Shown here in pieces: positions 3,280-12,517 of a stretch of 64,000 bases of DNA. The position numbers and the translations under genes were made by a program. Within the stretch, counting starts at the first letter, position 1; each line of letters opens with the position of its first letter. Source of the DNA: Candidatus Aenigmatarchaeota archaeon (GTDB taxonomy: Archaea > Aenigmatarchaeota > Aenigmatarchaeia > CG10238-14 > SCSR01); assembly GCA_038999725.1 (NCBI GenBank), contig JAWBWS010000003.1:52565-116564 (forward strand), read 5' to 3'. The notes below the pieces were generated by a model, which searched no databases, was not told where the DNA came from, and worked only from the letters and a program-made list of their open reading frames with translations.

Positions 3280-4644
3280 TTATGCCAGAAACTGCTCCTC
3301 ATATTTCTTCAAATACTCCACACTTTTCTTCACATCAACAAAAAGCTTCTCCACATAAACAACATGCTCTTTCTCTATTCTTTCAGCTTTTTTCTCTTTC
3401 GCAACTTCAAAGGCAGGAGCCAACAATTGAATTGCATACCTCAAGCTAGTTTTACTACCAATTTCAGTTAGATAATCCAAAGCTTCCTCACTAATCTTAA
3501 TCTTCTCAGATTTTGCTCTTATCTCCAGAATCTTCCTAATTTCCTCTTTCTCGTAGGGCTTTGTGTTTATTATCAGCAACCTGTCAAGCAAATCCAAAGG
3601 CATGCCATGAGCAGCTTTAATGTCAGTTCCCCTTATTGTTGCAAACCCCCTGTTTGTTGCAAAAATTATTATCGGAGCCAATTCCTGCTCCAAAGCCCTA
3701 TTCAAGAAAGCAAAAGTTTCTATGTCGAGCATGCTACATTCGTCAATGAAAACAACCCCTGGTATAAGCTCACATTTACCTTCCTGGACCAAAGTTTTTA
3801 TGTATTCATCAACCTCCTTCCTAACTTCAGGCTCAATTTCTTTTGACTCCTTTCCCCCAAAGAACAAGCTGAAGATATCGCTTCCAGCTCGTGAGCTGGC
3901 CACATCCAAAGCATGCAGAGTCACAGGATAAACAAACTCTTTCTCTTTCAACACTTTCCCCTTTGGCACAGGCACGGGCTTAACTGTTGTTAGATCAACT
4001 TTCTTCTCCTTAGCAGCTTCTTCACTTATACCAACCTTAACTATTCTGCCACCATCCACATCTATGTTCACAACATCCCCTGTTTCTACACCTTGTTGAA
4101 TCAATTGAATTGCAAAATTTTGGTCCATGGTTAATTTCTTGCTTTCATCTTTGGTTGCAATTTTTATTGTTGCCCCAACTGGGATTTGCTGATAAGGATT
4201 GTAGGGATGTTGAGCTTTTTCTATCGAAATTTCTTTAACTTCGCCCTCATATATCTTCCTCATCTCATGAATTCTTGCAGCTATGGCCTTTCTCAATGTT
4301 TGTGTGAGAAATTCGGTTTTCTTGATATCTGTGGAAAAAATTTCACTTGCCGCCAAGTGAACAAATGGAACATCTCTCCCCAATTCCCTTGCTATACCGC
4401 TTCCAAGAGCAGTCTTTCCTGTTCCAGGTGGTCCGGCCAACAAAATTGCTCTTCCAGCAAACTTACCTTCTTTTATCAGCCTAACAATCAAGCCAGCAGC
4501 CTCTCTTGCTTCTATTTGGCCAACCATTCCATCTGCTACTGGCTTTGCCTTCAAACCATCAAGACCCAAGCCTTGGATATGTGAATGAGCAGCAACCCTT
4601 TCCCACTCGCGCAGAGATTCGGGGATTTCCCTAATCTCTGCCAT
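3280..4644 (-). CDS. tip49: TIP49/RuvB-like AAA+ ATPase
   Basis: AAHSHIQGLGL, GPPGTGKT, FIDE, ATNRG, HGMPLDLLDRL, SLRYAIQLL. Confidence 0.95.
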   Translation of the reverse strand: MAEIREIPESLREWERVAAHSHIQGLGLDGLKAKPVADGMVGQIEAREAAGLIVRLIKEGKFAGRAILLAGPPGTGKTALGSGIARELGRDVPFVHLAASEIFSTDIKKTEFLTQTLRKAIAARIHEMRKIYEGEVKEISIEKAQHPYNPYQQIPVGATIKIATKDESKKLTMDQNFAIQLIQQGVETGDVVNIDVDGGRIVKVGISEEAAKEKKVDLTTVKPVPVPKGKVLKEKEFVYPVTLHALDVASSRAGSDIFSLFFGGKESKEIEPEVRKEVDEYIKTLVQEGKCELIPGVVFIDECSMLDIETFAFLNRALEQELAPIIIFATNRGFATIRGTDIKAAHGMPLDLLDRLLIINTKPYEKEEIRKILEIRAKSEKIKISEEALDYLTEIGSKTSLRYAIQLLAPAFEVAKEKKAERIEKEHVVYVEKLFVDVKKSVEYLKKYEEQFLA

Positions 4645-4648
4645 AACC

Positions 4649-5263
4649 TCACCTTTCAATCTCTATTTTTAGCACACCATCTTTAAATTTTTTACTTATG
4701 CTTACATTCTTTGGAATCGGAATCAGTTTGAAATAAGCCTTATCGCCAGCAAAAGCCTTCACTTCTATACTCTGCTCCAATCTCTTAACCTCTATATCTT
4801 CCTCACTTTTAACATCAGGCAGTTTTATAAGTATTATCTGTTTGTTTCCTATGGTTTGAACTTCTGACTCAGGCTCTTCTGTAACTTTTGGCACTTTAAC
4901 TTCCTTCTCCTCTTCTTCAACCTCTTCTACAGCAGGCCTAACGCCAAGCCTTCTTTTTAGTTCTGGTTCAAGTTTTTTGTATTCACCAGAAGTCTTTATT
5001 TCAATTTTTGGTTTCATTCCTCTACCACTGTGAACGGTTATGCTAATGCCCCCGCCCCTAATCCCAGGCTTTATCTTGAAGCTTGGTATCTTGAAAAAAT
5101 CAAACCCGAACATCTTGTCTATCTCTTTAAGCTCTTTATCTATATCATCAAAAATGCTCTCAAAAGGAGCCTCTTCTTCAATCTCCCACCCACAATAAGG
5201 GCAAAAATTCCAATCTTCTTTTATTTTTTTACCACACTTGGGACAAACCTTTTTTTCAAACAT
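4649..5263 (-). CDS. Zinc-ribbon plus C-terminal Hsp20/CS-like domain protein
   Basis: CPKC...CPYC at the N-terminus; IKLPDVKSEEDIEV...KFKDGVLKIEI beta-sandwich at the C-terminus. Confidence 0.75.
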   Translation of the reverse strand: MFEKKVCPKCGKKIKEDWNFCPYCGWEIEEEAPFESIFDDIDKELKEIDKMFGFDFFKIPSFKIKPGIRGGGISITVHSGRGMKPKIEIKTSGEYKKLEPELKRRLGVRPAVEEVEEEEKEVKVPKVTEEPESEVQTIGNKQIILIKLPDVKSEEDIEVKRLEQSIEVKAFAGDKAYFKLIPIPKNVSISKKFKDGVLKIEIER

Positions 5264-5383
5264 AGACAACCATCCAATTGTGTTTAAACTTGAAATATTT
5301 TTGTTTACAAGATATAAATTTCTTTTACATTCAAAACAATTTTCATTTAAATACTTGAAAATAAAAATTTAATTGTGGAAAAA

Positions 5384-5539
5384 ATGGGTAAGAAACCTTT
5401 TGGTGGATATTCGATTTGCTTTAAAGGAAGGAAGGAAACCCTTGAACAAGTATTTGGTACAGCTCCTCTGACCCCAAGTGCGATGACGAAAAAGCTTTGG
5501 GCTTTTGTGAAAGCTAAAAAACTGGCAAAGAAAGAATAG
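5384..5539 (+). CDS. Small basic SWIB/MDM2-like protein (51 aa; not in the ORF track)
   Basis: MGKKPFGGYSICFKGRKETLEQVFGTAPLTPSAMTKKLWAFVKAKKLAKKE; TATA-like TTTAAATA upstream. Confidence 0.7.
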   Translation: MGKKPFGGYSICFKGRKETLEQVFGTAPLTPSAMTKKLWAFVKAKKLAKKE

Positions 5540-5587
5540 AGTCGAAGAGAAGTTAAAAATTCTTTTGTTTGTGCTTAGCCAAAATTA

Positions 5588-5920
5588 TCAAAACCTCTTC
5601 ATCTTTCTTGAAATTTCAATTCCTTTCTTCTTCTCTTTCTTCAAGCTTTTCCCAATTTTTTTACCAAGCCTCTCAAACAAAAGCTTGAGAGCAGAAGGAA
5701 TGTCCCAACCATAAGCTTTGGCCACAAAAATTTTGTCGGAAGCTTTAACCTTAGCGTGAAAGGAATACTTCTTCCTTCCAGCAGGGCTATGTACATCAAC
5801 ATCAAGCTTTAAGCTTGTTATCTTCCAAATTTTTTCAAATTTTTTCAAGAATTTGCTAACTTCTTCTTCTATTTCAAATTTCTCTGGAATTGGTGCATGA
5901 GAAATCTCAACTTGAACCAT
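5588..5920 (-). CDS. Stand-alone HPF/RaiA-like ribosome hibernation domain protein
   Basis: beta-alpha-beta-beta-beta-alpha pattern; RKKYSFHAKV...FVAKAYGWDIPSALK. Confidence 0.6.
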   Translation of the reverse strand: MVQVEISHAPIPEKFEIEEEVSKFLKKFEKIWKITSLKLDVDVHSPAGRKKYSFHAKVKASDKIFVAKAYGWDIPSALKLLFERLGKKIGKSLKKEKKKGIEISRKMKRF

Positions 5921-5950
5921 AATTTTATTTTTTGTTTTTATTCTAAAAAA

Positions 5951-6700
5951 TCACTCTTCCTCAACTCTTGGTGCAAGCACAAAATTCAAGGTGAGCTTAT
6001 CCTTAACTTCAAAACTCATTTTAAGAGGATAGTCTTGAGACCATTCCAACACGACAAAATCGCTAAGCTTTGTGGCTTTCACCATTTTCTTCAAGTACTC
6101 TAAAGGATACCTTGCCTTCACGCTTCCTGTAGCTTTTAGTTCCACCAAAGCTTTGTTTCCTTTTTCAAGCTCAAGCTGGTTGGAACTTATATCACCCTCA
6201 GCCCTCATCAAAAACTTGGAGGAAGAGGCTTCAAAAACTATGGTGTCTGCAGTAACTTCGGCATCAGCAATTCCAGTTTCAAGAACGTCTGAACTTAGTT
6301 GTGCTTTTGTCGTGAATTCAAGCTGATCTATTCTTGGGATTTCCTCTTGGCTTAGCTCCAGCAAGGGCAACACAAACCTCCTCTTGCTAGAATTCTCGAA
6401 AATGATTTCGAGTTTTGAATCTTGTAAGTTAAAGATTACCTTATCGTCTCCTCTTGCCCTCTTCAAGACTGAAAGGAAATTTGAAATATCCAAACCAATT
6501 GACTGCTCTTTATCAATCTCATATTCCTCAAAAGCAAGGGAAGAAATTTTGAAATCAACAGCGGCAACCATTGCTCTATCAGAAGCTATCAAACTTATAC
6601 CATCTTTCGCTAGCTTGAAGACACCCTCATCTATAAGTTCAGCTATTGTAGAAATGGAGTTCACAAGCAAGCCCACATCTTTAAGAGTTGCTTTAAACAT
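5951..6700 (-). CDS. pcn: PCNA sliding clamp
   Basis: MFKATL..., DRAMV, YPLEYL, DYPL, LAPRVEE. Confidence 0.97.
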   Translation of the reverse strand: MFKATLKDVGLLVNSISTIAELIDEGVFKLAKDGISLIASDRAMVAAVDFKISSLAFEEYEIDKEQSIGLDISNFLSVLKRARGDDKVIFNLQDSKLEIIFENSSKRRFVLPLLELSQEEIPRIDQLEFTTKAQLSSDVLETGIADAEVTADTIVFEASSSKFLMRAEGDISSNQLELEKGNKALVELKATGSVKARYPLEYLKKMVKATKLSDFVVLEWSQDYPLKMSFEVKDKLTLNFVLAPRVEEE

Positions 6701-7364: not shown

Positions 7365-8021
7365 TCAAATTCCTCCAAAGATCCAATGAAATATAACTTT
7401 AAAATATCCTAATTTTGGTATAATAAATATTACCCTTCCTTTTATTTGTTCCCTTTTCACAGAATATTCAAATGGAAGCAAACCAGAATTGTGATCTCCT
7501 TTTGTCATGTAGCTTCCATCAGGATTAACTTTAATTATTCTGTGGATCACCGGAATTTTTTGACCAGGGACTTCATAAACTATCACATCCCCCACTTTAT
7601 ACTCATCACTTCCTTGAACTATAGGCAGATCACCTACCTCAAACCCATTTTTTATAGGCCAAGAATCTATATAGCTTCTGTTATAGCCCAAATTTTCTTC
7701 CAACCATCTGTAATGAGTTATTTCTATGGTTTCATCATGAAGCATGGAAGATGTTAAAACAGAAACTGCTGGATAGTCTGTAGCAAGAACCAAACCAAGA
7801 AAGCCTTTAAAAATTAAAGCTGCAATGGCTCCACCTAAAATGTAAGGTAAGTAAGATTCTTGCTTGAAATAATACAGAAGAAGCACGCCAAAAATCACTA
7901 GCAGATAGGTTGTTATGTTTGTGATTGAAAATAGGTAAAGCAAAACAACTGATAAAAAAATGTAAAGGAAGATTCCATACTTCTTTTCAATTTTTTTCCA
8001 CTTTCTCTTAAGCTCTTCCAT
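7365..8021 (-). CDS. sec11: Signal peptidase I (Sec11 type)
   Basis: TM helices, SSM, GDVIVY, VIHRI, TKGDHN. Confidence 0.88.
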   Translation of the reverse strand: MEELKRKWKKIEKKYGIFLYIFLSVVLLYLFSITNITTYLLVIFGVLLLYYFKQESYLPYILGGAIAALIFKGFLGLVLATDYPAVSVLTSSMLHDETIEITHYRWLEENLGYNRSYIDSWPIKNGFEVGDLPIVQGSDEYKVGDVIVYEVPGQKIPVIHRIIKVNPDGSYMTKGDHNSGLLPFEYSVKREQIKGRVIFIIPKLGYFKVIFHWIFGGI

Positions 8022-9215: not shown

Positions 9216-10526
9216 ATGATTTCCATGATAGAATTCCAAAGAGTTTGGAACTGGTATTCTCGCGAATCTGTGCTCAAGGCTATTGTTGAGGCTGCAAAAA
9301 ACAGGGAAGTTGTTGCAGTCTATCGTGATGGTATTTTCGGTAAAAGGCCTGACATGCTTCAATACATTCAAGATGTTCTTCAATCGGTGGCCAAAGGTGC
9401 CATATCTTTTCATGGCTCTGTCGAAAGATGGCAACAACCCATGAAACTTGATGTGGGGTTAAGCAAAGCTCAGCTTGATGCCATGAGGATTGGGTGGGAT
9501 GTTTTATTTGATGTTGATGTTGATGTTTTTGAAATTGCCAAAATTACCGTTAAACAACTGATAGAAGCTTTCAAAGACCATGGTGTTTCTAGCTATAGTG
9601 TTAAATTCACGGGGGGCTCTTCTTTCCATGTTGGAATACCTTTTGAAGCCTTACCTGAAAAGATCAATGCTCAACCAACTGCTGCTCAATACCCGGAAAT
9701 CTTGCAGAAAATAATAGAATATGTGAAATGGTACATCAAGGATCAAGTGAAGGAAGAAATCATGGCTTTAGCAAGGCCTGAAGAAATTGCCAGCAGGATA
9801 GGAAAGCCTTTGAAAGAGATAACAGAAAATGGTGAAATTTCTCCATTCAAGATAGTTTCCATGGACGTCTTTGGCTCAAGGCATTTGTTCAGGCTTCCCT
9901 ACAGTTTACATGAAAAAACCCTTAACGTGAGTTTGCCGATAAAACCAGAGCATATAGATAAATTTGAAGTTCATCAAGCTTTGCCAGAAAAAGCCAAAGT
10001 TGAAGAAAAATTTCTTGTGCCAAAATCGAGCTTAAATGATGCAGAAGCTTTGGTTATAGAAGCTTTGGACTGGAGCGCTAAACACTTGCGTGAAATCAAG
10101 GAGGAAATACCAAAAGTGATTACCACCAAAAAGAAAATTAAAACAGTGCCAGAAAATTTCTTCCCCCCTTGCATTAAAAACATCTTACAAGGCTTGAGCG
10201 ATGGAAGAAAAAGAAGCCTTTTCATTCTAACAAATTTCTTGAGAAACATGGGTTGGAGTTTAGAAAAGATAGAAAGCAAGATAACTGAATGGAACTCCAA
10301 AAACATACCCCCTCTAAGGAATAGCTATTTGAGAACTCAGTTGAGGTGGCACTTCAGGCAAGAGAGAAATCTACTGCCACCAAATTGCGATAATGAGAAT
10401 TTTTACAAGGCTATTGGGGTGTGCAAGCCAGATGAAGTGTGCGCAAGCGATGGTGAGATTGTGTTAAAGAATCCTGTCAACTATCCTTTCAAGAAGCTCA
10501 AGACCAAGAAAAAGAAAAGGGTTTAA
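9216..10526 (+). CDS. priSL: Fused DNA primase (PriS catalytic domain + PriL Fe-S C-terminal domain)
   Basis: WDVLFDVD and FTGGSSFHV (AEP motifs); FPPCI...PPNC...C...C...NPVNY (PriL-CTD). Confidence 0.9.
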   Translation: MISMIEFQRVWNWYSRESVLKAIVEAAKNREVVAVYRDGIFGKRPDMLQYIQDVLQSVAKGAISFHGSVERWQQPMKLDVGLSKAQLDAMRIGWDVLFDVDVDVFEIAKITVKQLIEAFKDHGVSSYSVKFTGGSSFHVGIPFEALPEKINAQPTAAQYPEILQKIIEYVKWYIKDQVKEEIMALARPEEIASRIGKPLKEITENGEISPFKIVSMDVFGSRHLFRLPYSLHEKTLNVSLPIKPEHIDKFEVHQALPEKAKVEEKFLVPKSSLNDAEALVIEALDWSAKHLREIKEEIPKVITTKKKIKTVPENFFPPCIKNILQGLSDGRKRSLFILTNFLRNMGWSLEKIESKITEWNSKNIPPLRNSYLRTQLRWHFRQERNLLPPNCDNENFYKAIGVCKPDEVCASDGEIVLKNPVNYPFKKLKTKKKKRV

Positions 10527-10568
10527 ATAATCACTTTTAAGGTTTTATATAAGATTGGTTATAAGCGA

Positions 10569-11126
10569 ATGGGAAAGAAAATGGAAGAAGCAATAACTTT
10601 TGAACTGATAAGGAAGATCCAAAGAGAGGAAGAGAGATCACCAAAACTCTCCAAGCTACCCGAGAATTTTTATCAGAATGTTAAGAATTACCTTCAGCAA
10701 AAAAAGAAGATTCTGGAGAAAATGGAAGATAGGAAAGCTTCAATTGAAATAAAAAATATAGAGAGGTTAGTCGAGGATATCTTCAACAGAAGGGAGAGGA
10801 AGATAGTGACACAAGCTATTAATTCAGCAAGAGTTGGTTTGGTTGTAGAGAATTTAACAGATGAGGAGAAAGAGTTTTTTGAAAAAGTTAGAGATTTGGT
10901 TAAAAATAGGAGGGAAAAAATTTTGAAAGAATTGTTGGAGAAGGAGGAAGAAGAAAAAGAAAGTGTGAGCATGGTTGTTTTCAGGCAAGCTGTTCCTGAA
11001 TTCATTGGCACAGACATGAAGACTTACGGTCCATTTGAGAAAGGTGATATGGCTAAGCTTCCGGAAGAAAATGCTAGGGTTTTGATCGAAAAGGGTTTGG
11101 CAGAAGAGCTCAAAGTTAGCAAATAG
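10569..11126 (+). CDS. gins: GINS complex subunit (Gins15/51)
   Basis: LSKLPENFY, RRERKIV, YGPFEKGD...LP; canonical primase-GINS-L44e-S27e context. Confidence 0.88.
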   Translation: MGKKMEEAITFELIRKIQREEERSPKLSKLPENFYQNVKNYLQQKKKILEKMEDRKASIEIKNIERLVEDIFNRRERKIVTQAINSARVGLVVENLTDEEKEFFEKVRDLVKNRREKILKELLEKEEEEKESVSMVVFRQAVPEFIGTDMKTYGPFEKGDMAKLPEENARVLIEKGLAEELKVSK

Positions 11127-11178
11127 ATTGAAGAATGTAAAGAAAAATTTAAATAGTTTTTTTCTTTACTTAATTGTG

Positions 11179-11409
11179 ATGAGCTTGTCTTCGATTTTGA
11201 ACAAACTGAAAAAAATGGTTGGAAACTCTTTAATTGGGGAAATATCTCTATATTGTGAAATATGTAACAGAGTTGTGATTATTAGTGAGGAAGAAAGAAA
11301 GAAGTTGGGAATATACAATCCTGAAAAAGATCTTAAAATTTTGAGTTGCCCCATCTGCAATGTACCCTATGGTAAAAAGTTTTACCTATACGATTATTCT
11401 AAGGAGTAG
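11179..11409 (+). CDS. Hypothetical Zn-binding protein
   Basis: CEIC...CPIC; own TATA-like TTTAAATA upstream. Confidence 0.55.
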   Translation: MSLSSILNKLKKMVGNSLIGEISLYCEICNRVVIISEEERKKLGIYNPEKDLKILSCPICNVPYGKKFYLYDYSKE

Positions 11410-11538
11410 TTTAAAAATTTAAATTAATGGGAAAAGCGAGAAAGATAATTTAAATTTGTTTAAAGACAAAATAAATTTTGTCTTGATAAAAGAAATAAAC
11501 CCCATAAATTTAAATGAAAAGCATTCAAAGGTATAAAA

Positions 11539-11823
11539 ATGAAATTCCCAAAAGAAATCAGAACTTTTTGCCCATACTGTGGCAAACACACAACACATAC
11601 AATTGAGGTAGCCAAAAGGAGGAAGAAGAGGTCTTTAGCTAGCGGGGAGAGGAGATTTCATAGAGCTATGAAGGGTTATGGCTCTTTCCCCCGTTCAAAT
11701 CCAAGGGGAAGGGAAAAACCAACAAAAAAAATTGATTTGAGGTTCAAATGCAAAGTTTGTGGAAAAGCACACACAAGAGGTAAAGGCTGGAGGGCAAAAA
11801 AATTTGAGTTGGTGAAGGAATGA
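11539..11823 (+). CDS. rpl44e: Ribosomal protein eL42 (L44e)
   Basis: [20 protein letters not shown]. Confidence 0.96.
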
Positions 11824-12014
11824 GGAGTAAAAATCTTGTGACTCTACCCAAGAGCAAATTTTTGAGAGTTCTTTGTTTCAAGTGTAAGAATGAGCAAGTA
11901 ATTTTCAGTAAAGCCAGTTCTCTTGTTAAATGCTTGAAGTGTGGAGAGATTTTAGCAGAACCAACTGGTGGGGAGGCTAGAGTTAGGGGAAAGGTTTTGG
12001 AGAGGTTTGGTTAA
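11820..12014 (+). CDS. rps27e: Ribosomal protein eS27
   Basis: [15 protein letters not shown]...C..CG..LAEPTGG. Confidence 0.96.
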
Positions 12015-12091
12015 CCCAAGAGGGAAAAGTTTTTAAAACTTCGAAAAAAATAATTTTTTTAGTGTTTAAATAATCTAAATTGGTGATTTAA

Positions 12092-12517
12092 ATGATATGG
12101 GAAGAGGCTTGGGATGAACTTGAAAAGATGAGAAGAAGGATAAACTACCTCATGAGAAGGATGTGGATGCCCTTGGAAGAGGAGCTAGAAGCTTTCAAAA
12201 GTTTTCCTGTTGATGTGAGTGAAACAGAAGACGAGCTTATAGTCAAAGCAGATTTACCAGGATTTGAAAAAAGTGATGTGACAATAAGGGCAACTGAAAA
12301 CAGTTTGGAGATAGAAGCTCAACACAAGGAGAAAAAAATTGAAAAAACAGAAAGGATGTTTAGAACAGAAAGAAGACTTGGTGCCATGAGGAGATTCTTA
12401 ACCTTACCTCTTCCAGTTGACTATGAGAAAGCTAAGGCTGAGATGAAGAACGGTGTGCTCACGGTAAGGCTACCAAAGAAGATAAAGAAGGTGGGAAAAG
12501 AAATAAAAATTGAATAG
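12092..12517 (+). CDS. hsp20: Small heat shock protein Hsp20
   Basis: [22 protein letters not shown]-terminal IKI motif. Confidence 0.95.

Follow-up and report, generated by a model that had tools for sequence, protein, structure and literature searches.

A 64,000-nucleotide stretch of the genome of a Candidatus Aenigmatarchaeota archaeon (contig JAWBWS010000003.1; the whole stretch is called the window) carries two closely packed genes between positions 3280 and 5263. The upstream gene encodes a 204-residue protein, here named ZnCS, which combines a zinc ribbon, a beta-hairpin module and an alpha-crystallin domain (ACD) of the type found in small heat shock proteins (sHsps), and the downstream gene encodes TIP49, a RuvB-like AAA+ ATPase. 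The favored explanation, to which a probability of about 0.6 is assigned, is that ZnCS is a lineage-specific sHsp paralogue acting as an ATP-independent holder, which in this organism is co-transcribed and translationally coupled with the only TIP49 of the genome. A first-pass annotation of the same DNA had proposed that the pair is an ancestral form of the eukaryotic R2TP complex with a PIH1-like protein next to TIP49; this was not borne out, as the genome has a single TIP49, the neighboring gene lacks a PIH1 domain and a search of the genome for Hsp90 found none.

The features of the locus, in window positions, are the following:

4649..5263, minus strand: ZnCS gene, 204 amino acids (aa), stop codon included (open reading frame (ORF) and sequence; the name is this report's own)
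5183..5251, minus strand: C4 zinc ribbon, residues 5-27, CPKC ... CPYC (Pfam Zn_ribbon_3 E 2.3e-9, Zn_Ribbon_1 E 7.4e-9)
5111..5161, minus strand: predicted helix, residues 35-51 (AlphaFold2 secondary structure; moderate confidence, block means 62-77)
4946..5068, minus strand: middle module, residues 66-106, with beta-hairpin 72-78/86-92 and helix 93-105 (consensus and AlphaFold2 model)
4886..4945, minus strand: variable linker, residues 107-126, with acidic VEEVEEEEKE at residues 112-121 (sequence)
4652..4885, minus strand: C-terminal alpha-crystallin-type beta-sandwich, residues 127-204, lacking the beta6 loop and a C-terminal extension (model and homology)
4645..4653, minus strand: ZnCS/TIP49 junction, with GGTGAGG at 4653-4647, TGA at 4651-4649 and spacer GGTT at 4648-4645 (read in the sequence)
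3280..4644, minus strand: TIP49 (RuvB-like AAA+ ATPase) gene, 454 aa, ATG at 4644-4642, end at 3282-3280 (Pfam)
5264..5587, minus strand: AT-rich intergenic region 5' of ZnCS with a TATA-like TTTATAT at about 5312-5318 (sequence alone)
12092..12517, plus strand: canonical sHsp, 141 aa (PF00011 E 4.7e-20; NCBIfam Hsp14 E 1.9e-25)

The ZnCS frame opens with the ATG at 5263; a TTG two codons upstream (5269) is the alternative start in the sequence, and is less likely because relatives begin with MF..KK.C. The first-pass annotation was right that the gene ends four nucleotides (nt) before the TIP49 start codon, and the Shine-Dalgarno-like sequence of the junction spans the ZnCS stop codon, as expected from the sequence of an internal gene of an operon. 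Spacers shorter than about 20 nt are also present in the relatives that have the tight pair. The AT-rich region upstream of ZnCS is likely, judging by its sequence, the promoter region of the pair. Both frames can be taken, on sequence grounds, to be real genes and not chance ORFs because their relatives are numerous: 380 for ZnCS at E<=1e-3 among 1158 candidates scored, and 4107 for TIP49 at E<=1e-20 among 8000 candidates scored. Among 50%-identity cluster representatives, a HMMER scan with ZnCS returned 1220 matches at E<=1e-3, of which 341 reached E<=1e-10 and 37 E<=1e-30. For both proteins, the nearest relatives with a name belong to Aenigmatarchaeota (DPANN archaea), and ten distant cluster representatives of ZnCS carry no taxon label beyond "archaeon". 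The genome that contains the window measures 730 kb and is estimated to be 93% complete. The DNA runs listed as containing the stretch are hot-spring metagenomes, three of which may be its source, and no RNA run was listed.

To our knowledge, archaeal TIP49 has no established function or chaperone role. The protein encoded in the window is a complete member of its family, comprising a full-length P-loop domain with the DII insertion (PF06068 E 8.6e-135, profile positions 1-347 of 347) and the lid domain TIP49_C (PF17856 E 2.1e-25), and its Walker A (GPPGTGKT) and Walker B (FIDE) motifs are invariant in 53 homologues. It is encoded by a single copy (a single match in the genome exceeds the cut-off) and shares 67-91% identity with the TIP49 of other archaea (67-69% with that of other archaeal phyla). 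Some relatives have a TIP49 gene that is split after about residue 81, beside Walker A, by about 1.5 kb of inserted DNA lying in a single 721-aa open frame (L003:4879-6452; L049 (= G146:C29), pieces 5760-6005 and 7569-7916), and one homologue of 773 aa (P0353) contains the intein/LAGLIDADG Pfam domains PF14890 and PF14528. The insertion in these relatives looks like an intein in the P-loop, and the TIP49 of the window has none.

Domain architecture of ZnCS

The arrangement of zinc ribbon, acidic linker and Hsp20/CS-type fold that the first-pass annotation had recognized is corroborated by Pfam, by the sequence itself and by the AlphaFold2 model, and the motif string on which its PIH1 assignment was based is located at residues ~129-202 of the product. 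An alignment of 105 diverse members (A1), the source of the family profile and consensus, shows a constant layout consisting of a zinc ribbon, a helix, the segment GxSIxIxxxxGxxPKVxVxTFG, a variable linker, a PK.TEEP motif and the C-terminal domain, the consensus of which is I.LPGVKS..DIEI..LE.SIEVKA.AGDKAYFKI...P.......F..G.L.LE. across these members. The zinc-ribbon cysteines C7, C10, C21 and C24 are fully or almost fully conserved. The databases label ZnCS relatives as "zinc ribbon domain-containing protein" or, in JGI, "HSP20 family molecular chaperone IbpA".

The C-terminal domain of ZnCS is an ACD in which the beta6 loop has been lost. When the family profile was compared with all sequences of the PDB, the best match was the ACD of Sulfolobus (S.) solfataricus Hsp20.1 (4rzk, E 5.9e-6, covering the whole domain), followed by weaker matches to other sHsps (3w1z, 6ewn and 7oa6), and no PIH1 chain appeared at E<=10. 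The sole NCBIfam match, NF041800 ("archaeal heat shock protein Hsp20", E 7.9e-7), points to the same group of proteins at a score (28.8 bits) far under its equivalog cut-off of 140. Structural comparison is in agreement with the profile search. The AlphaFold2 model built on A1 reaches a predicted local distance difference test score (pLDDT) of 97-98 over residues 125-204, and with it Foldseek ranks 4rzk first in the PDB (E 1.3e-6, 29% identity, template modeling score 0.76 on the target) with other sHsps next, whereas CS domains (USP19 CS2, Shq1, SIP) come in from rank 39 onward and the matches listed, ranks 1-49, include no PIH1 chain. Likewise, the first 24 ranks of a VIA-align search are all sHsp ACDs (Z 12.6-10.4), including SsHsp20.1 at Z 12.0 and 28-29% identity. 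The likeness to the PIH1 CS domain proposed by the first-pass annotation is therefore not upheld: in PDB profile search, Foldseek, VIA-align, hhalign and NCBIfam alike, the best matches are generic or archaeal sHsp ACDs and PIH1 is not preferred. A GvpH family was absent from the Pfam and NCBIfam matches of ZnCS, and GvpH was not pursued further.

The loss of the loop is seen most directly in the comparison with canonical sHsps. An hhalign comparison of A1 with an alignment of the canonical sHsps of the window and its relatives (A4) gave 94.9% probability (E 4.7e-8, 72 columns), and its gaps of 6 and 12 residues coincide with the beta5-beta7 segment of sHsps. ZnCS ends about one residue past the last strand, which leaves no room for a C-terminal extension with an IXI/V motif. 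The ACD is thus homologous to that of canonical prokaryotic sHsps (PF00011; for instance M. jannaschii Hsp16.5 and the product of the gene at 12092), but lacks both the beta5-beta7 (beta6 loop) segment and the IXI tail, the elements through which canonical prokaryotic sHsps dimerize and oligomerize. SsHsp20.1 (NF041800, 4RZK), the best match by sequence and by structure, shows the motifs LPGV...DI.V and F.nG.L.I in its alignments with ZnCS, and these motifs are typical of sHsps. Unlike SsHsp20.1, ZnCS carries a zinc ribbon and a hairpin/helix where the N-terminal arm would be, and is devoid of the C-terminal extension.

The N-terminal half of ZnCS has a character of its own. In the middle module, residues G72, I75, I77, P85, T91 and G93 are invariant or at least 90% conserved in the family, and the first hairpin strand of the window protein reads S74-I75-x-V77, a form of the IXI/V motif. 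Its sequence suggests that the element G-x-S-I-x-I/V resembles the sHsp IXI/V motif which, according to passages of PMC4359974, binds the beta4/beta8 groove of a neighboring ACD. The hairpin/helix is predicted with pLDDT 87-89 in the full-length model (mean 85), and falls to 56-62 when residues 1-122 are folded alone (A3, 69 sequences; mean pLDDT 57). This drop in the absence of the ACD is read, cautiously, as packing of the hairpin on the ACD in the model. Residues 28-122 used as the query of a protein-collection search gave no usable match. Some genomes also encode a shorter ZnCS paralogue in open frames of 163-174 aa, in which the zinc ribbon (profile positions 2-80) is joined to the ACD (~108-201) without the middle hairpin module (G006:C4:23475-23969; G010:C11:104801-105289; G073:C1:96502-96996; G078:C11:139301-139792; G041:C7:58572-59033).

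The linker varies among relatives. In the 80 ZnCS relatives compared, most lineages that have TIP49 within the order of this organism show an acidic linker, and a His-rich or basic one is found elsewhere; in a qualitative comparison, the acidic (V/I)EE(V/I)EEE stretch is degenerate in three TIP49-less sister groups. An independent-pairs test of linker charge against TIP49 presence gave no signal with the five pairs available on supported branches. A TIP49-less clade within the same family (genus code g5: L100, L102, L105, L107, L108, L112) has a His-rich instead of an acidic linker, with runs such as HHHHE and HEHK, a composition that might allow it to bind metal.

Neither Pfam nor NCBIfam has a family of its own for the combination of zinc ribbon, hairpin module and loop-less ACD, and the literature searched, which left out most subscription journals, contained no account of this architecture or, by title or abstract, of a partner of archaeal TIP49; the papers listed on TIP49 together with PIH1 deal with snoRNP assembly in eukaryotes.

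Linkage of ZnCS and TIP49 across genomes

The association of the two genes was examined in a sample of 151 Aenigmatarchaeota genomes (G000 included), in which TIP49 was recognized at E<=1e-40 and ZnCS with profile A1 at E<=1e-8. TIP49 occurs in 28 genomes and ZnCS in 83; 26 have both, 2 have TIP49 alone, 57 have ZnCS alone and 66 have neither. Where both are present, ZnCS immediately precedes TIP49 in the same orientation, less than about 20 nt away, in 14 genomes, is separated from it by 526 nt in one, and lies apart from it in 11. With regard to the two genomes in which TIP49 stands alone, the contig of one ends 66 nt upstream of the gene, and the TIP49 of the other is divergent (49% identity) and preceded by unrelated ORFs. 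Since TIP49 was not found in 57 of the 83 carriers, ZnCS does not need it.

Loci from named genomes and metagenomes gave a comparable picture. TIP49 follows ZnCS directly in 12 of 36 named-genome loci, is about 400 nt off in one and about 1 kb off in another, and does not occur within the flank covered in the remaining 22, four of which have less than 900 nt of downstream DNA. Every named ZnCS relative found belongs to Aenigmatarchaeota, in a named-genome scan that used patterns from this one protein. From metagenomes, 80 TIP49 loci (67-89% identical to the TIP49 of the window) were collected, of which 62 are informative (at least 650 nt of upstream DNA): ZnCS is directly upstream in 25, farther away but within 3 kb in 6, and not seen in 31. 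The other loci comprise 4 that are cut and retain a partial adjoining ZnCS and 14 that are uninformative. Among the 71 metagenomic loci with a recognized TIP49 ORF, ZnCS is the commonest upstream neighbor (22), followed by an ABC transporter (10); the other neighbors are unrelated (ABC transporter, MFS, radical SAM, UbiD, phosphatase, AdoMet decarboxylase, AcnX), and this neighbor survey revealed no second recurrent chaperone-like gene beside TIP49. The coupling that the first-pass annotation had pointed out at this locus therefore stands as a recurrent arrangement (14 of 26 genomes, 25 of 62 metagenomic loci), but it does not extend to the family as a whole, most carriers being devoid of a detectable TIP49 and many of the rest having the genes unlinked.

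The simplest history consistent with these data is that the pair was ancestral in this order and that TIP49 was then repeatedly lost, or the pair broken up, with ZnCS retained. In a quick maximum-likelihood tree of 80 ZnCS sequences, all TIP49-adjacent copies fall in one clade of 43 rows (Shimodaira-Hasegawa-like approximate likelihood ratio test 90), in which they are mixed, at similar branch lengths, with TIP49-unlinked and TIP49-less copies, and the label "adjacent" requires 7 changes on the tree vs a mean of 13.0 after shuffling. Such a distribution, restricted to a single order-level clade and repeatedly lost, is also what could be expected if the adjacency were a leftover of ancestral gene order devoid of functional meaning, an sHsp paralogue standing by chance beside TIP49; the facts that about half of the TIP49 loci have no ZnCS and that ZnCS is independent of TIP49 agree with this explanation. 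However, the spacer is shorter than about 20 nt in every pair seen, and the pair persists where the genes on either side have been rearranged many times (in 13 pair loci, at least 8 neighbor clusters are found upstream and at least 9 downstream), including, in this genome, by the removal of an sHsp gene described below, which makes a mere leftover unlikely.

Canonical sHsps and chaperone context

The separate canonical sHsp at 12092 that the first-pass annotation had set apart from ZnCS is indeed present, and a PF00011 search of the genome returned this gene alone. In the relatives, the gene string reads primase - GINS - L44e - S27e - canonical sHsp - ZnCS - (TIP49), and in 13 of 31 sampled genomes with both genes the canonical sHsp immediately precedes ZnCS (at up to about 600 nt, same strand). 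The ancestral string of this order was sHsp - ZnCS - TIP49. In the genus of the window the block from primase to sHsp (9216-12517, plus strand) has been inverted away, so that the sHsp is now about 7 kb from ZnCS on the opposite strand, and PCNA, a 98-aa ORF, TFS and others are found upstream of ZnCS; the rearrangement is common to two genomes of the same genus (L047, L065). Outside the order the neighbors of ZnCS are varied (T2SS-F-like, DUF2391, Nre, NYN, L15e, CorA, Ogg). In one genome (G100) an sHsp and a 61-aa ferredoxin-like ORF precede TIP49, and ZnCS is elsewhere. This ORF (L204:2802-2987) is Cys-rich (CIGCGYC ... CP); a 61-aa ORF also lies between sHsp and ZnCS in L049, L054 and L056 (cluster 52).

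Several other genes of these neighborhoods merit mention. A 110-aa ORF (5588-5920, minus strand), just upstream of the putative ZnCS promoter region and 80-86% identical in the same two genomes of the genus, gives weak matches, below the cut-offs, to the ribosome hibernation factor families Ribosomal_S30AE (E 1.3e-4, 23.1 bits vs 23.7) and TIGR00741 yfiA (E 4.8e-4); as far as we know, a protein resembling the ribosome hibernation factor HPF is unusual in an archaeon. The primase (436 aa, 9216-10526, plus strand) has a relative (L002:309-1625) that matches both PF01896 and PF04104, the families of the small and the large subunit, and is therefore a fused PriS-PriL primase, a type of enzyme known from some DPANN archaea. 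Locus L025 (CAZPZA010000026.1), deposited as "uncultured Gammaproteobacteria bacterium", carries an Aenigmatarchaeota-type string of primase, GINS, L44e, ZnCS and aRF1, and its bin label is probably wrong.

In the genome of the window one thermosome and one canonical sHsp are encoded, and neither Hsp70 nor Hsp90 (PF00183, for which a control search was positive in five bacteria) was found in this 93%-complete genome. In the sample of 151 genomes, canonical HSP20 (PF00011 at E<=1e-6) is present in 75; 31 genomes have both HSP20 and ZnCS, 52 ZnCS alone, 44 HSP20 alone and 24 neither. The two are anticorrelated when kinship is ignored (odds ratio 0.33, Fisher p 0.001). In some families ZnCS is present where HSP20 is missing (f14, 7/7 vs 0/7 genomes; f9, 2/2 vs 0/2) and in others the reverse is observed (f8, 0/7 ZnCS vs 7/7 HSP20; f15, 0/12 vs 9/12). 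This partly complementary distribution fits partial redundancy, with ZnCS doing an sHsp-like job.

Weighing the readings

According to the explanation favored here, ZnCS would bind non-native or unassembled proteins independently of ATP, as a holdase or adaptor. The C4 zinc ribbon, the helix and the hairpin/helix module would take the place of the N-terminal arm usual in sHsps, zinc ribbon and IXI-like hairpin would also stand in for their C-terminal tail, the internal IXI/V-like strand would dock on the ACD of the same or of a neighboring molecule, and the zinc ribbon may offer an additional binding surface. Forming one transcription and translation unit, ZnCS and TIP49 would therefore be made together, and the likely reason for their pairing is that holder and AAA+ ATPase contribute to one proteostasis or assembly response of a hot-spring archaeon. 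With no Hsp70 or Hsp90 found, one thermosome and one sHsp, a holder and a ring ATPase are plausible as a single stress or assembly unit. SsHsp20.1, the best match of the C-terminal domain, functions as an sHsp holdase according to passages of PMC9133787 and PMC4359974.

Precedents for such an arrangement are the pairs formed by an sHsp and an AAA+ ATPase, as hsp20 and the aaa+ atpase of the Phr regulon of Pyrococcus or IbpA/B and ClpB in bacteria. In these pairs, as would be the case for ZnCS-TIP49, a ring ATPase is encoded or regulated along with a holder that works without ATP; they differ in that the ATPase is here TIP49.

A number of observations weigh against the interpretation of ZnCS as an sHsp-type holder that is co-produced with TIP49. 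As regards the domain, PIH1_CS (PF18201) is the sole HSP20-clan family of Pfam that matches the window protein (residues 118-184, E 0.023), and HSP20 (PF00011) gives no match to it at E<=1. Over the 105 members, PIH1_CS matches 10 at E<=0.1, HSP20 9 and ArsA_HSP20 8. In the model, the shape of the domain is as close to CS domains as to some sHsps: PIH1D1-CS (6gxz_D) holds rank 25 of the VIA-align search (Z 10.4, root-mean-square deviation 2.3, 77 residues), and Sgt1 (Z 10.1) and Shq1 (Z 9.4) are not far behind. With the beta6 loop and the IXI tail both missing, the assembly of ZnCS and its behavior as a classic sHsp are uncertain. At the junction, a TATA-like AAAAATAG is located ~20 nt upstream of the TIP49 ATG and, going by its sequence, AAAAATAG could allow separate transcription of TIP49. 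In the genome sample, ZnCS is present in 26 of the 28 TIP49 genomes, and the near absence of TIP49 genomes lacking ZnCS could point to something beyond co-regulation. Both this co-occurrence and the ZnCS-HSP20 anticorrelation are confounded by shared ancestry, so that the latter is indicative only.

The points concerning the domain, together with the missing beta6 loop that it shares with CS domains, are those that speak for true homology of ZnCS with the CS domain of eukaryotic PIH1, and hence for an ancestral R2TP-like module. This origin is nevertheless highly improbable. The PIH1_CS match scores 15.6 bits vs a gathering cut-off of 23.3 and does not reflect a family-wide preference, given the nearly equal count for HSP20 and the better best E of the latter across the members (2e-4 vs 0.0042; ArsA_HSP20, 0.0026); the family profile, which finds an archaeal sHsp at E 5.9e-6, retrieves no PIH1 chain; and identity to PIH1D1-CS is 13%, vs 28-29% to SsHsp20.1. 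The PIH1 N-domain (PF08190) has no match in ZnCS at E<=1 (a genome-wide search for it was negative too, but so were its control genomes, and it carries no weight), Hsp90 was not found in the genome, and the restriction of named relatives to Aenigmatarchaeota is unlike what is expected of the ancestor of a pan-eukaryotic module. PIH1D1 and yeast Pih1 (Nop17) are, like ZnCS, small proteins with a beta-sandwich and a genetic or physical tie to TIP49/RUVBL, but R2TP contains a RUVBL1/2 pair where this genome has a single TIP49. The CS/p23 domains of Sgt1, Shq1 and USP19 (CS2) present the same compact sandwich of seven to eight strands without a beta6 loop, yet their identity to ZnCS is 9-11%, the Pfam CS family (PF04969) has no match in ZnCS at E<=1, and their usual partner, Hsp90, was not detected in the genome. 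A CS-like outline produced by trimming of an ACD probably explains both the impression recorded in the first-pass annotation and the weak PIH1_CS match.

The observations concerning linkage and co-occurrence bear on another alternative, namely that ZnCS is a dedicated adaptor of the TIP49 ring, analogous and not homologous to PIH1D1, SHQ1-CS and zf-HIT proteins, which would bind the hexamer (e.g., at DII) and bring clients to it, while the copies of TIP49-less genomes would have kept a stand-alone holdase role alone. The tight and translationally coupled pair, its retention while the flanks change, the position of ZnCS as the commonest upstream neighbor of TIP49 with no other recurrent chaperone-like gene seen, its presence in nearly all TIP49 genomes and the qualitative trend in linker acidity are in favor of this role. 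In addition, RUVBL1/2 bind CS-domain and zinc-finger partners, mostly via DII, according to passages of PMC9406135. The same passages place the CS domain of Pih1 in contact with Tah1/RPAP3 and not with the ATPase, the PIH1 domain in contact with clients, and the Tah1-Pih1 dimer in contact with the DII domains (PMC9406135), so that an analogy in which a CS domain binds TIP49 is loose. On the other hand, most ZnCS carriers have no detectable TIP49, the genes are apart in 11 of the 26 genomes with both, half of the informative metagenomic TIP49 loci show no ZnCS within 3 kb, the linker-charge test gave no signal, co-occurrence tracks phylogeny, and the domain is closest in sequence to bona fide sHsps. 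A prediction of the complex of TIP49 (A2) and ZnCS (A1) scored 0.05 vs a mark of 0.32, in the absence of control runs, and counts neither way. A dedicated adaptor is accordingly viewed as possible, though doubtful.

A bolder proposal is that in Aenigmatarchaeota an sHsp-derived zinc-ribbon adaptor, encoded immediately upstream of TIP49, might dock on the TIP49 ring, with the trimmed ACD and the IXI-like hairpin holding unassembled or heat-damaged proteins, and would have arisen independently of R2TP. This proposal is speculative and, in our estimation, rather doubtful; if true, a holder and an AAA+ ATPase would form an assembly or repair machine with an R2TP-like logic, in which a beta-sandwich client adaptor serves a TIP49 ring.

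The reading of ZnCS as an sHsp-type holder coupled to TIP49 has consequences at several levels. ZnCS represents an uncharacterized architecture of the sHsp superfamily, in which a zinc ribbon and a hairpin module accompany an ACD without the beta6 loop, and it illustrates a way in which trimming can reduce an ACD to a CS-like core, which bears on the relationship between domains of the CS/p23/PIH1 type and sHsps. In 52 of the 151 genomes no other ACD protein was found, and ZnCS therefore probably serves these very small genomes as a main holdase. As a recurrent and translationally coupled neighbor, ZnCS is a concrete candidate partner for archaeal TIP49 and, in place of an ancestral R2TP module, provides a lead to the function of this ATPase in archaea.

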